A stretch of 64,000 nt of DNA from an uncultured Lachnospiraceae bacterium (GTDB taxonomy: Bacteria > Bacillota > Clostridia > Christensenellales > UBA1242): NCBI GenBank assembly GCA_964653635.1, contig CAZZGZ010000004.1, positions 21,718-85,717 on the forward strand, given 5' to 3'. The position numbers and the translations under genes were made by a program. Each line of letters starts with the position of its first letter. Position 1 is the first letter of the stretch. This document shows positions 51,172-55,913 of the stretch, piece by piece. The notes beneath the pieces were generated by a model, which made no database searches, was not told where the DNA came from, and saw only the letters and a program-made list of their open reading frames with translations.

Positions 51172-51930
51172 TCACCTTCTTTTTGTAAACTTAGGTAATT
51201 TATCAATATTTACAATCTGAGAAAGTGGCAAATTTAACCTAAAAATAGTGTTTAAGGCATTATTGACTTCTCCAACTTTACTAGGACTATGTGCATCTGA
51301 ATTGCATATAAACTTTACTCCCTCGTCAGCCATTATTAAGAGTTCCTCGTCTGTAAAATTGATCCTTTTCCCATTAAGTTCTAAAAATACCCCCTTTTGC
51401 TTTGCCATTTTTGCCACCGACAAAGTATCAGTTGAGATGCAGTAGTTTAGATGAGTTATAACATCAATAGGATATTTATCAATAGCCTTAAGATATGCCG
51501 TGGTGTTTCGATTGATAAGCTCCTTGCTTGCCTTAAAAGGAGAATTTAGAATATTTGTGTAAACTAACTTAAATTTATCATTCATAGTGGGAGTTTTAAC
51601 CAACTTGTGAAATCCCATCAAAAGAATATCTAAATACTCAAAATCCTCTTCATTTACGTCAATTTCCCCATCTAATGAAATAAGATTGGATTCGACTCCA
51701 AGCATAATATCAACTCCTGTTATCTCTCTAGCACTATATATGTCTTCACGTAGCGAAGGCAAATCTTTTCTTCTTATACCATAACGTTCATGATTAAAAC
51801 CATGGTCAGTTATTGCAATCTGCTTTATGCCTTTATCTGCCGCAACACTTGCGTTTTCAAGCACTGTGCCTTTTCCATGCTTATGTCTTGAATATATAGT
51901 ATGTGTGTGATAATCTCCAAAAAGAACCAT
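51172..51930 (-). CDS. PHP-family metal-dependent phosphoesterase
   Basis: 252 aa with the PHP motifs DYHTHTIYS, ITDHG, H at NYCIS/THLN and NSDAHSP. A GGAGAG SD lies upstream. Confidence 0.75.
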   Translation of the reverse strand: MVLFGDYHTHTIYSRHKHGKGTVLENASVAADKGIKQIAITDHGFNHERYGIRRKDLPSLREDIYSAREITGVDIMLGVESNLISLDGEIDVNEEDFEYLDILLMGFHKLVKTPTMNDKFKLVYTNILNSPFKASKELINRNTTAYLKAIDKYPIDVITHLNYCISTDTLSVAKMAKQKGVFLELNGKRINFTDEELLIMADEGVKFICNSDAHSPSKVGEVNNALNTIFRLNLPLSQIVNIDKLPKFTKRR

Positions 51931-52181
51931 ATGACTCTCCTAGATATAGTTTATCATTTTTCTAATTATTTTTCAAGTTATTTGATTTATTATATTAAAA
52001 TTATCAAAAGTAATTTAAGACGTAGGATGTGTGATTAAAAATAAATTTTTAAAATTATACAAATTGAACCCAAAAAACATATTTAAAAAAATCTCACGTA
52101 CCCATAACATGTGAAAGATGCGATTAGAAGTAGAATATTTAATAGGTTGTAACTATTTGAAATTAACAAAATTAGTGATAT

Positions 52182-52222
52182 AAAACAAAAATCTATCAAA
52201 TTAGATAGATTCTTTTTGTTTT
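52182..52222 (-). terminator. possible terminator after the Spt-like gene
   Basis: aaaacaaaaatctatc / gatagattctttttgtttt: an inner 6-bp stem and an outer 10-bp A/T stem with a 3-nt bulge. There is no separate U-tract. Confidence 0.3.
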
Positions 52223-52255
52223 GATTAATCAACATATTTTTTATAATGAAATTTT

Positions 52256-53437
52256 TTATTTAACATCTAAAATGTCTAAAACTTCCTTTATGGCAATCAT
52301 TGCACGATCCATTTGTTCCTTAGTATGAGTTGCTGTGTAAGAAGTTCTAAGCAAAGCCATGCCTTTAGGTGTAGCTGGTGAGACTACAGGGTTGACGTAA
52401 ACACCCCGCTCTAGAAGTAATTTACAAGCAACAAAGGCCTTTTCATCTTCGTAAACATAAATTGGAATTATTGGAGTTACCGCATCAATTATCTTAACAC
52501 CTAGTTTTTTAAGTCCTTCACGCATATAAGCAGAAATTTCTCCTAATGCTTTTACACGTTGAGGTTCTTCTTCCAATATTTTTAAACTTTGAAGGGCACA
52601 AGCTACTGAGGCAGGTGTAATGCTAGCACTAAAAATATATGGACGTGAAGTGTGCATAACATAATCAATAACTTCTTTGCTAGCTGCCATATAACCACCT
52701 AAACTAGCTAATGATTTGGAAAAAGTCCCCATGTAGATATCCACATCATTTTCAAGGTTGAAATATTCTGCTACACCACGACCATGAGCCCCCAGAACTC
52801 CTAAAGAGTGTGCATCATCAACCATGATTCTTGCACCATATTTTTTAGCTAGTGCTACGATTTCTGGTAATTTACATATCTCTCCACTCATTGAGAAAAC
52901 ACCATCAGTAACAATTAAAATCCCCTTACTATCTGGTATTGATCTTAATTTTTTTTCGAGATCTTCCATATCGCTGTGTTTATAACGAATCATTTCACCA
53001 AAAGAAAGTCTGCACCCATCATAAATTGAAGCATGGTTTTCTCTGTCACAAAGTACTACATCATTTCTCCCTACCACGGCACTGATAATACCCAAATTTG
53101 TCTGGAATCCAGTACTGAACGTCATAACTTTTTCTTTATGCAAGAATTTAGCTAATTCATTTTCAAGTTCAATATGAATGTCAAGTGTTCCATTTAAAAA
53201 TCTCGATCCACTATTACCTGTACCATATTTATTTAAAGCATCAATCCCAGCTTTTATAACTCTCTTGTCTGAAGTTAATCCAAGATAATTATTTGAACCT
53301 ATCATTATTGTATCATGCCCTTCCATGACTACCTGAGTGTCTTGTCCACTTGTCAACTTGTGGAAATAAGGATATATTCCTTTTTCCTGTATCGTTTTAT
53401 ATAATTGTTCCCCTCTCATTTTTTCAAAAATATCCAT
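52256..53437 (-). CDS. PLP-dependent alpha-oxoamine synthase, serine-palmitoyltransferase-like
   Basis: 393 aa with SNNYLGL, GSRFLNGT, FSTGFQTNLG, DDAHSLG, the PLP-lysine motif GTFSKSLASLGGY and VNPVVSPATP. The RFLNGT and FSTG..NLG variants resemble Spt/CapB-type enzymes more than KBL (FICGT, SSCFDANGG) or BioF. Confidence 0.75.
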   Translation of the reverse strand: MDIFEKMRGEQLYKTIQEKGIYPYFHKLTSGQDTQVVMEGHDTIMIGSNNYLGLTSDKRVIKAGIDALNKYGTGNSGSRFLNGTLDIHIELENELAKFLHKEKVMTFSTGFQTNLGIISAVVGRNDVVLCDRENHASIYDGCRLSFGEMIRYKHSDMEDLEKKLRSIPDSKGILIVTDGVFSMSGEICKLPEIVALAKKYGARIMVDDAHSLGVLGAHGRGVAEYFNLENDVDIYMGTFSKSLASLGGYMAASKEVIDYVMHTSRPYIFSASITPASVACALQSLKILEEEPQRVKALGEISAYMREGLKKLGVKIIDAVTPIIPIYVYEDEKAFVACKLLLERGVYVNPVVSPATPKGMALLRTSYTATHTKEQMDRAMIAIKEVLDILDVK

Positions 53438-53447
53438 GATTTTTCTC

Positions 53448-54242
53448 CTATATATAAATTTTTGAAACTAAAAAATTTAACATTTTAGTTGGTATAAGCC
53501 TGGTTATTAAAGCTATAAATTTACTAGTAACCCCCACTGAAACCCTTAAAGGAGGATTTTTTTTACGCACTAGTTTTATGACCGTTTTGGCAACAAAGTC
53601 CGGATTTTTACCTTTCATTTCTGCTTTTTCCATCTTCATAATTCCATGCTCTTCAGCCTTATCACTGATTTGTGTCTTAATTCTCGCACTAGTAAATCCC
53701 GATTTTATATCGCCAGGCATAACTGTGATTACTTTAATATTACGTGGTTTTAGTTCTGTAGCTATCGCTCTTGAAAAAGACTCTATACCAGCTTTGCTTG
53801 CACTATAAACTGCTTGATATGGCAAGGGTATTAATGAAGCTAACGAGCCAGTATAAATAATTTTACCCCCTTGACTGATATATGGCAAAAATTTGTTTGT
53901 AAGCTTAATACTTGCAACTAAGTTTACATTTAAAAGCCGTTCAATATCCGCTTCGTTAGAATTTTCAAACTTTCCACCAATACCAAAACCTGCATTACAA
54001 AAGAGCAAATCTATATTATCATTTTCACTTAGTATATCGTGAATTACTTCGCTAAGTTTTGTATCATCACATATGTCACACTGATAACTTTTTTGAAATA
54101 AGTCACTATCCGATAAACTTCGTGAAATATTATAAACTTTTACTCCAGCATTAGTAAGTCTTTGTGTAATAGCCTTGCCAATTCCACTACTACCTCCTGT
54201 AATAACAGCAACCTTTCCGAGTAATTTTTTATCTGTTTCCAT
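53448..54242 (-). CDS. classical short-chain dehydrogenase/reductase
   Basis: 264 aa with TGGSSGIG, NAG and catalytic S...YSASK. It lies 10 nt upstream of the Spt-like gene. An AGGGGT SD lies upstream. Confidence 0.85.
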   Translation of the reverse strand: METDKKLLGKVAVITGGSSGIGKAITQRLTNAGVKVYNISRSLSDSDLFQKSYQCDICDDTKLSEVIHDILSENDNIDLLFCNAGFGIGGKFENSNEADIERLLNVNLVASIKLTNKFLPYISQGGKIIYTGSLASLIPLPYQAVYSASKAGIESFSRAIATELKPRNIKVITVMPGDIKSGFTSARIKTQISDKAEEHGIMKMEKAEMKGKNPDFVAKTVIKLVRKKNPPLRVSVGVTSKFIALITRLIPTKMLNFLVSKIYI

Positions 54243-54265
54243 TTATCTTTTACCCCTACAAGTAT

Positions 54266-54295
54266 ATATTAGCAAAAACTCGTTGACTAAGTCAA
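54266..54295 (-). promoter_or_regulatory. sigma-A-type promoter of the SDR/Spt-like operon
   Basis: On the minus strand: TTGACT (54295-54290), an 18-nt spacer, then TAATAT (54271-54266). The -35 is half of a 13-bp perfect palindrome. Confidence 0.5.
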
Positions 54296-54304
54296 GAAAA
54301 AAAC

Positions 54305-55210
54305 ATGTTTTCACACGCATTTTTTATAATTTTCATATATAAATATGTGAAATTGCCATCATATATAAAAAATAATTTTGATATAACTCAATATAATACA
54401 TTAGGAATTAAATGCACATGCAAATATTTTGCTCTACCTAAGAACATCATTCAGCTTTTAAATGCCTTAAAGTTCGCAAAAAAACAAGATGTAAAAGTCT
54501 TTATTTTGGGCAATGGAAGTAACGTTTTATTCAAAAGTTTTTACGATGGAATGGTAATCTGTTTTAAAAAATATATTAAAAATTTTTATCTCAATGAATC
54601 CTTGATTAGCGTTTCAGCTGGCATGAGTTTGTTTGAACTTAATAAGCTGTGCCTTAAAAAAAATTTGAGCGGGCTTGAATTTTCCTATGGTATTCCAGCA
54701 AGCGTTGGTGGATTTGTAAAAATGAATGCAGGAGCTTTTGGTGGATATGCACAGGATGTTGTTAGTGAAGTAACATATATTGACTCAAACTTAAATATAT
54801 CAAGTGCTAAAAAAGACGAGATAGAATTCGAAAATAAAAATATCCGCATAAAAGGAATGCTCGCAATTATTGCTGTCACTTTCAAACTTAAATCAAACTC
54901 ACACGAGCATATTTACAACAAAATGGAAGAAGTATTAACTCAGAGATTGGCTACACAACCATATAATGAAAAAAGTGCAGGATGCTTTTTTAAACGTAGC
55001 AATGATATATTTCCTGCCAAAATAATAGACGACTTAAGTCTTAAAGGTTTAAGAATTGGAGATGCAATGGTCTCAACAAAACACGCAGGCTTTATTGTAA
55101 ATAAAGAAAATGCAACTTCTGATGATATCTTAAAACTTGCTGGCATAATAAAATGCGTTGCAAAATGTCATGGTATTGTTTTAGAGCAAGAAGTAATTTT
55201 AGTAGAGTAA
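54305..55210 (+). CDS. murB: UDP-N-acetylenolpyruvoylglucosamine reductase
   Basis: 301 aa with the FAD-binding GNGSN motif, the GAFGG region and a C-terminal MurB domain (GCFFKR...AGFIVN). The exact start is uncertain because there is no clear SD. Confidence 0.85.
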   Translation: MFSHAFFIIFIYKYVKLPSYIKNNFDITQYNTLGIKCTCKYFALPKNIIQLLNALKFAKKQDVKVFILGNGSNVLFKSFYDGMVICFKKYIKNFYLNESLISVSAGMSLFELNKLCLKKNLSGLEFSYGIPASVGGFVKMNAGAFGGYAQDVVSEVTYIDSNLNISSAKKDEIEFENKNIRIKGMLAIIAVTFKLKSNSHEHIYNKMEEVLTQRLATQPYNEKSAGCFFKRSNDIFPAKIIDDLSLKGLRIGDAMVSTKHAGFIVNKENATSDDILKLAGIIKCVAKCHGIVLEQEVILVE

Positions 55211-55297
55211 AGAAATTAAAGATTTATTTAAAGTTATCTACATGTTTTAAAGCACTAATTATACAACTTTAAAATCATTAAAATAAATCATGATATT

Positions 55298-55324
55298 AAA
55301 AAAACTGCTTAGTGCAGTTTTTCA
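55298..55324. terminator. bidirectional terminator between murB and rplQ
   Basis: aaaaaaactgc-ttagt-gcagttttt, with an A-tract and a T-tract flanking the stem. Confidence 0.65.
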
Positions 55325-55403
55325 AAATACAAAATCTAATTTTATCGAAATGTAATACATGCAAATTTATCAAATTACAAAAAATTAGTTTCCCACAATT
55401 ATA

Positions 55404-55913
55404 TTACACAAGCTCTACTAAGGCCATTAATGAAGCATCTCCACGCCTCTGCTCAAGTTTAATAATGCGAGTATATCCACCAGCTGAACCTAATTCCTTC
55501 GCCCTTTGAGCATATTTAGGTGCATAAACATTAAAAATCTTTTCAATTAACGGATGGTTGATGTCTGCTATGCGTGCTTTAAATGCGTCAACAGATTCTT
55601 TTTCCTTCCTTTGCTCTTGTAGGTCATAAAGATAACTCATTATTTCTCTTCTTGCTGCGAGCTTTTTAGTTCCATCATTGACTACTTCAACCTTAGATTT
55701 TTTACCATCTTTGCCCTTTACTTCCTTTTCAACTTTAATTGTGTCTTCGTAGGTATTTATGGCAAGTGTAATGATTTTTTCAGCTATTCTTGCTACAGAC
55801 TTAGCCTTAGCAAAAGTTGTCTCTATCTTTCCATACCAAAGAAATGATGAAACTTGCCCCCTTAACAATGCCTTACGTTCTTTCGATGGTCTTGATAATT
55901 TATCGTTAGCCAT
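55404..55913 (-). CDS. rplQ: 50S ribosomal protein L17 (with internal insertion)
   Basis: N-terminus LSRPSKERKALLRGQV...IETTFAKAKSVARIAEKIITLA and C-terminus GGYTRIIKLEQRRGDASLMALVELV. It is 169 aa where about 115-130 aa is usual. Confidence 0.9.
   Translation of the reverse strand: MANDKLSRPSKERKALLRGQVSSFLWYGKIETTFAKAKSVARIAEKIITLAINTYEDTIKVEKEVKGKDGKKSKVEVVNDGTKKLAARREIMSYLYDLQEQRKEKESVDAFKARIADINHPLIEKIFNVYAPKYAQRAKELGSAGGYTRIIKLEQRRGDASLMALVELV

Follow-up and report, generated by a model that had tools for sequence, protein, structure and literature searches.

To our knowledge, the production of sphingolipids by gut bacteria has been credited almost wholly to Bacteroidota, whose sphingolipids affect host immunity and lipid metabolism. 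In Bacteroides the pathway runs from Spt, a serine palmitoyltransferase of the alpha-oxoamine synthase (AOS) superfamily, to the reductase KdsR, and the two genes, spt (BT_0870) and BT_0972, are presumably unlinked in B. thetaiotaomicron. The Caulobacter pathway has the order Spt, bCerS, CerR. Cysteate-C-fatty acyltransferase (CapB/SulA; PDB 28EH) is another AOS whose reaction is followed by keto reduction and whose donor is an acyl-(acyl carrier protein) (acyl-ACP) (PMC13692747), and KBL and BioF, of threonine/glycine metabolism and biotin synthesis, share with all of these the superfamily, the fold and the catalytic lysine. Here we describe a pair of genes, one for a short-chain dehydrogenase/reductase (SDR) and one for an AOS, in a 64,000-nucleotide stretch (the window) of contig CAZZGZ010000004.1 (positions 21,718 to 85,717; assembly GCA_964653635.1) from an uncultured Lachnospiraceae bacterium, assigned in GTDB to Christensenellales. 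With a probability that we put at roughly 70%, the pair is an operon that makes a sphingoid, sphinganine-like long-chain base from serine and scavenged acyl chains by Bacteroides-type Spt/KdsR chemistry. This reading is built on the gene structure, the family placement, the catalytic and serine-site residues, the recurrent linkage of the two genes and the lipid gene content of the host.

The synthase belongs to the Spt clade

The top NCBIfam model for the AOS is NF047600, Bacteroidota Spt, with 538.5 bits, followed by beta-proteobacterial Spt (426), a KBL-related model (412), KBL (409) and BioF (385 bits). The curated equivalog cut-offs are 640 bits for NF047600, 460 for KBL and 426 for BioF. 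Ten diverse Spt-like representatives also all fall below the cut-off of NF047600, a model named for the CFB group (Bacteroidota). Among solved structures, the best relative is the SPT of Sphingobacterium multivorum (PDB 3A2B/8GUH, 423 bits), ahead of Sphingomonas SPTs (~297), Thermus BioF/KBL (285), KBL (250-272), cysteate-C-fatty acyltransferase (250), human SPTLC2 (223), BioF (200 or less) and CqsA (114 bits).

Annotated records supplied the reference rows for the trees: Spt from B. finegoldii, P. distasonis, Prevotella and Sphingomonas, the KBLs of E. coli and of B. velezensis, each adjoining a tdh gene, and BioF of E. coli. In the IQ-TREE phylogeny, Bacteroidales Spt, Sphingomonas Spt and the Bacillota sequences form a clade (ultrafast bootstrap 97, SH-aLRT 98) that leaves out both KBLs and BioF. 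Within it, the Bacillota AOSs form a clade of their own (92/92; 98/98 when one basal row is dropped), and the branching order of Bacteroidales, other phyla and Bacillota has no resolution. Quick trees of 93 and 44 rows agree with this topology, the Spt clade having an SH-aLRT of 96 in both. Like the Spt enzymes of Bacteroidota (S. multivorum; Bacteroides, Parabacteroides, Prevotella), the AOS is of the soluble type, about 395 aa long, with the same residues at the PLP (pyridoxal phosphate)/serine site, and it is ~51% identical to those of B. finegoldii, P. distasonis and Prevotella, which share its large clade; unlike them, it lies in the separate Bacillota clade and below 640 bits. The first enzyme of the Caulobacter/Sphingomonas pathway is also homologous and falls in the same 97/98 clade, but is only ~43% identical to the AOS.

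The sequence-only reading of the window had likened the AOS to Spt and not to KBL or BioF, and had named firm clustering with either of the latter as the result that would count against it; the placement in the Spt clade goes the other way. It is scarcely credible that the AOS is a housekeeping KBL or BioF, with an SDR that is unrelated or resembles a threonine dehydrogenase. The KBL and BioF scores are high, as they are with any AOS, but both stay below their cut-offs and behind two Spt models, and the tree excludes the AOS from either family. As the sequence-only reading had noted, the annotation of the locus with Pfam and NCBIfam shows no bio or tdh gene among the neighbours of the pair (for bio genes, the rest of the genome was not searched). 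In E. coli and B. velezensis, the neighbour of KBL is a tdh of the zinc type rather than a classical SDR. The host genome gave no match to a fatty acid synthase. KBL and BioF are thus set apart from the AOS by tree, model ranking and gene context.

Active site and amino-acid specificity

All four variable motifs that the sequence-only reading had picked out (GSRFLNGT, FSTGFQTNLG, GTFSKSLASLGGY and VNPVVSPATP) are seen in the alignment of the AOS to PDB 3A2B. The serine/PLP-site residues of S. multivorum SPT, as described in PMC10196870, were used as a reference. In that numbering, the AOS keeps Asn52, Gly80, Ser81, Phe83, Leu84, Asn117, His138, Ser185, Asp210, Ala212, His213, Thr241, Ser243 and Lys244; its own numbers are lower by 3 (N49, G77, S78, F80, L81, N114, H135, S182, D207, A209, H210, T238, S240 and K241). 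K241, aligned with Lys244, is the catalytic lysine of a fold-type I PLP-dependent AOS, in a GTFSKS-type motif. Met271 of the S. multivorum enzyme, which makes a main-chain contact, is Ile268 in the AOS. The marks of cysteate acyltransferases, a Phe-Gly-Tyr region and Ala82 (PMC13692747), are absent, and SPT-type Gly-Phe-Gln-Thr-Asn and Ser78 stand in their place.

These residues bear on an alternative that we consider unlikely, namely that the AOS joins a long-chain acyl group to glycine, alanine, cysteate or another amino acid, the SDR then yielding a 1-deoxy or capnine-like base. Neither amino-acid nor acyl-chain specificity can be read with certainty from sequence, SPTs take glycine and alanine too, at low efficiency (PMC10196870), the AOS scores below the Spt equivalog cut-off and the Bacillota clade is uncharacterised. 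Yet every serine/PLP-site residue of S. multivorum SPT listed above is kept, and cysteate is further disfavoured by the replaced pocket residues and by 250 bits to the cysteate acyltransferase vs 423 bits to SPT. Of the two comparisons drawn in the sequence-only reading, Spt therefore holds and cysteate acyltransferase does not; likewise, its sphingoid/capnoid base pathway is supported as a sphingoid one and disfavoured as a route to capnine or sulfonolipids. Scores, tree and residues led us to reject the KBL, BioF, cysteate acyltransferase and CqsA readings of the AOS.

The reductase and its linkage to the synthase

The translation of the SDR contains TGGSSGIG and YSASK, both reported in the sequence-only reading, and thus the TGxxxGxG motif and the Ser/Tyr/Lys set of classical SDRs. 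With about 265 aa, a Gly-rich NAD(P) motif and YxxxK, it resembles KdsR BT_0972 of Bacteroides thetaiotaomicron (PMC9278070). Its top NCBIfam model is NF049977 (KdsR); unlike the family of BT_0972, it reaches only 188 bits vs a cut-off of 400. The KdsR call rests mainly on gene linkage, which is a stronger argument than the model score.

Related loci were collected by a search with a 3-sequence AOS alignment, and neighbours were clustered for 85 AOS loci; these belong to Clostridia, Acholeplasmatales, Izemoplasmatales, Haloplasmataceae and a small number of other phyla. Only the SDR recurs as a neighbour of the AOS. In 29 of the 85 loci it adjoins the AOS on the same strand (by gene count, 11 upstream and 19 downstream), and a further 13 loci have it adjacent on the opposite strand (12 divergent, 1 convergent). 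Altogether, the two are adjacent in 42 loci, in four gene arrangements that are spread over Clostridia, Acholeplasmatales, Izemoplasmatales and Haloplasmataceae. KdsR is also the top model for AOS-adjacent SDRs of other lineages, in 10 out of 10 sampled (200-305 bits). Within the genus, an orthologue of the SDR (170 bits or more, set off by a natural gap from scores of 135 and lower) is present in 19/21 AOS-positive vs 5/15 AOS-negative genomes, a co-occurrence that is descriptive only because related genomes are not independent. The pair is operonic in the host and in many Bacillota, whereas no KdsR-like gene lies within 3 kb of Spt in B. finegoldii.

The suggestion of the sequence-only reading that the SDR is the keto-reductase partner of the AOS agrees with both the top model and the recurrent adjacency. 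It is very unlikely that the AOS is an Spt and the SDR has another function, the adjacency being incidental and any keto reduction being done elsewhere. The narrow lead of KdsR over the generic model PRK06179 (188 vs 170 bits) would fit such a separation, as would the SDR orthologues of the nearest relatives, which are not adjacent to the AOS, and the five AOS-negative genomes that retain the SDR. Incidental adjacency is, however, at odds with its recurrence in four arrangements and four lineages, with KdsR ranking first for every sampled neighbour, with the co-occurrence in the genus and with the translational coupling of the two genes here.

Acyl supply and the proposed pathway

No match to a FabF/B-type ketoacyl synthase (PF00109) or to an AMP-binding acyl-CoA/ACP ligase (PF00501) was found in the host genome, and therefore the acyl chain most likely comes from scavenged fatty acids. 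The activation route visible in the host (Table 1) leads from exogenous fatty acid through acyl-phosphate to acyl-ACP. Judging from this lipid gene content, the donor of the AOS is likely acyl-ACP. A genome of the same order that has type II fatty acid synthesis carries the gene run fabD-fabG-fabF-accB-fabZ-accC-accD-accA-degV-AOS, and the AOS is tied to acyl-ACP metabolism because it ends this fab/acc run. The host differs from those of Bacteroidota Spt, being a Clostridia fatty-acid auxotroph of 0.79 Mb with no visible acyl-CoA route; an acyl-ACP donor is plausible in the Caulobacter/Sphingomonas pathway as well.

In the proposed pathway, FakA/FakB would activate a scavenged fatty acid to acyl-phosphate and PlsX would move the acyl group onto ACP. 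The Spt-like AOS would then condense L-serine with the long-chain acyl thioester to 3-ketodihydrosphingosine, with loss of CO2, and the KdsR-like SDR would turn this product into a sphinganine-like amino-diol by reducing its 3-keto group, with NADPH as the probable cofactor. The order of steps would be that of Bacteroides (Spt then KdsR) and not that of Caulobacter (Spt, bCerS, CerR), the reduction presumably preceding N-acylation. We infer the substrates, the acyl-ACP donor and the cofactor, and equally the fate of the base, which may stay free or be N-acylated or head-grouped.

When proteins resembling bCerS and CerR, taken from the Rubrobacter, Aureispira, Sphingomonas and Rahnella clusters, were compared by BLASTP with all host open reading frames (ORFs) of at least 60 aa (genome 95% complete), none gave a match at E 1e-3. 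Unlike the Caulobacter/Sphingomonas pathway, in which these enzymes belong to the GNAT-type bCerS and NDUFA9-like CerR families, the host has a classical SDR as the reductase, and no dedicated ACP, fatty acyl-AMP ligase, bCerS or CerR adjoins the AOS, nor did BLAST find one in the genome. The sequence-only reading had proposed to search the genome for a ceramide synthase, an ACP and an acyl-ACP synthetase; one ACP gene is there, and neither a ceramide synthase nor a PF00501 acyl-ACP/CoA ligase was found.

No third gene recurs beside the pair: in the neighbourhood clustering, nothing except the SDR occurs in more than 8 of the 85 loci, and the other clusters are ABC transporters, ribosomal proteins, pseudouridine-related genes and the like. 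DegV (FakB) was rejected as a linked gene. It is near the AOS in 8/85 loci, which is weak because four DegV genes in 0.79 Mb give ~6% by chance.

The lack of a linked N-acyltransferase or head-group enzyme, the accessory status of the pair within the genus and a palindrome across the promoter, which suggests regulation, would all suit a small diffusible amino-ketone or amino-alcohol signal, made in the manner of CqsA from a medium-chain acyl donor, in place of a membrane lipid base. We give this possibility little credence. CqsA is distant from the AOS, which sits inside the Spt clade, and the relative that links its AOS to a fatty acid synthesis operon and a DegV gene fits long-chain metabolism.

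Several points weigh against the synthesis of a sphingoid base by the pair. Neither enzyme reaches the equivalog score of its family, the SDR being far below its cut-off and only 18 bits above a generic model, and the closest relatives have the two genes apart. The AOS is missing from 15 of the 36 genus genomes, which makes the pair accessory. No reference row for cysteate acyltransferase, HemA or CqsA was included in the trees, so that of the placement among Spt, CapB/SulA, KBL, BioF and HemA proposed in the sequence-only reading, only that among Spt, KBL and BioF has been obtained. The Bacillota AOS clade has no assayed member, and we found no literature report of sphingolipids in Clostridia. 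As the search of the genome found no bCerS or CerR homologue, a complete sphingolipid pathway is not shown, and the side activities of SPTs and the limits of reading specificity from sequence, given above, count on the same side.

A DAGK-family lipid kinase was considered as a further partner and rejected, its presence in 12/21 AOS-positive vs 6/15 AOS-negative genus genomes showing no clear association. Unlike Bacteroides Spt, the host AOS has no adjacent DAGK-family gene. The host does encode a DAGK_cat/YegS-type lipid kinase elsewhere (Table 1), which is 29% identical to the DAGK-family gene divergent from Spt in B. finegoldii and P. distasonis, and in four genus genomes a DAGK-type kinase lies 1.4-3 kb from the AOS or the SDR. 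Eukaryotic sphingosine and ceramide kinases have a DAGK-type domain too.

Distribution and significance

The AOS is present in 21 of the 36 sampled genus genomes (69-86% identity), in 7 of 24 other families sampled in the order (57-63%) and in 52 of 398 sampled Clostridia species (~13%, identity at least 58%), one family having it in 14 of 14 genomes. Carriers include metagenome-assembled genomes (MAGs) named as Oscillospiraceae, Lachnospiraceae, Acetivibrionales, Clostridiaceae, Acholeplasmataceae, Izemoplasmatales and Haloplasmataceae. The view of the sequence-only reading that such a pair is unusual for Clostridia is right relative to the published record, as our search of the literature on Spt or sphingolipids in Clostridia, Bacillota and Acholeplasma found nothing specific, and does not hold at the genome level. 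Acholeplasma axanthum was reportedly shown in the 1970s to contain sphingolipid.

Two carriers are cultured, Peloplasma aerotolerans M4Ah (DSM 112561) and 'Candidatus Clostridium radicumherbarum' WILCCON 0202, which makes the sphingoid-base idea directly testable. P. aerotolerans M4Ah is a wall-less mollicute with the AOS-SDR pair; its species description reports 3-OH C16:0 and 3-OH C18:0 fatty acids, without a polar-lipid analysis, and is a lead only (PMC11122141).

Between the host and G036, another genome of the genus, the AOS is 86% identical, compared with 78% for RpoA, 75% for L17, 71% for the PHP protein and only 59% for the SDR. The retention of the pair in a 0.79-Mb genome without fatty acid synthase, with an AOS better conserved than RpoA and L17, suggests selection and the use of scavenged acyl chains. 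Activity of the Bacillota clade would mean that the makers of sphingoid bases also include many uncultured Clostridia and wall-less Acholeplasmatales, and that sphingolipid capacity is underestimated in metagenomic work. A broader proposal is tentative, and we doubt it more than we trust it: genome-reduced gut Clostridia that are unable to make fatty acids might turn scavenged host or dietary ones into sphingoid bases through FakA/FakB, PlsX, ACP and an acyl-ACP-dependent Spt/KdsR, with no known ceramide synthase, and the pair, carried by about one Clostridia species in eight and also by Acholeplasmatales, might be a large unrecognised host-active source of sphingoids outside Bacteroidota.

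AOS genes were also met on plasmids (Table 1). A mobilizable plasmid of the cultured Bacillus relative Priestia megaterium has an AOS of the Spt clade (51% identical), divergent from genes for an Acyl_transf_3 acyltransferase and a methyltransferase, and this locus may be a different amino-lipid module. Phocaeicola plasmids, such as that of Phocaeicola vulgatus, have a very divergent AOS (38% identity) that is on a long branch outside the Spt clade and is followed by a TetR regulator gene.

Layout and local history of the locus

The SDR and AOS genes form one operon and are translationally coupled. Their positions and the intergenic gap of 10 nt are exactly those given in the sequence-only reading, both genes being on the minus strand (Table 1). 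They are not chance ORFs, because the SDR matches the Pfam family adh_short with E 1.5e-41 and the AOS matches Aminotran_1_2 with E 5e-59. Site prediction gave no terminator-like site downstream of the AOS. The neighbours are murB (divergent) and genes for a PHP phosphatase, whiA, dnaE and pfk, with rplQ and rpoA on the other side.

Table 1. Features of the SDR-AOS locus, of the host genome and of two plasmids; positions are those of the window unless a locus or contig is named
Feature	Position	Strand	Basis
SDR gene, 264 aa, classical, KdsR-like; candidate 3-ketodihydrosphingosine reductase	53448-54242	minus	ORF, Pfam, NCBIfam
AOS gene, 393 aa, PLP alpha-oxoamine synthase of the Spt clade; candidate serine:long-chain-acyl condensing enzyme	52256-53437	minus	ORF, NCBIfam, PDB, trees
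Ribosome-binding site AGGAG, overlapping the SDR stop codon TAG; AOS ATG 7 nt further	53445-53449	minus	sequence read
Predicted promoter-like site of the operon: TTGACT, 18-nt spacer, TG-extended TAATAT	54266-54295	minus	consensus scan, 9/12 matches, TG before -10
13-bp palindrome TTGACT-T-AGTCAA across the -35 element; possible operator	54283-54295	no strand	sequence read
murB	54305-55210	plus	
murB, SDR-AOS pair and PHP gene region	51172-55913		
DegV/FakB, four genes			host genome search
FakA (Dak2 domain), present			host genome search
PlsX, present			host genome search
PlsY, present			host genome search
ACP, one gene			host genome search
AcpS, present			host genome search
DAGK_cat/YegS-type lipid kinase of the host	G000:C11:2727-3620 (L117:2727-3620)	minus	
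Spo0A_C match of the host, open frame 139 aa	G000:C8:33119-33418		
Spo0A_C match of the host, open frame 148 aa	G000:C1:124746-125060		
AOS locus of Priestia megaterium plasmid NZ_CP137804.1	L105:4628-8215		
AOS locus of Phocaeicola vulgatus plasmid NZ_CP096966.1	L110:2941-4895		

The host assembly has 787,760 bp in 11 contigs, with ~33% G+C, and genomes of the genus, as grouped in our analysis, range from 0.7 to 1.3 Mb. Close protein matches are to animal-gut MAGs named 'Clostridia bacterium', 'Christensenellales' and 'Candidatus Caccovivens'. The label of a spore-forming organism, applied in the sequence-only reading, is not established for such a genome: only two Spo0A_C matches were seen, and their open frames do not represent a full Spo0A with a receiver domain because they are too short.

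Three relatives in the genus have rpoA-rplQ-murB-PHP on a single strand, without the SDR-AOS pair. In the host, murB is inverted and the pair lies between murB and the PHP gene. Since MurB is only 37-40% identical to that of relatives, transfer of a murB-SDR-AOS block was considered; the low identity was not accepted as evidence, since throughout the genus MurB shows little conservation. Genus-wide, its identity is 32-45%; matches to murB contain in-frame stops in several genus genomes, and 8 of the 36 have no match at E 1e-30. Peptidoglycan precursor synthesis may thus be decaying in parts of the genus.

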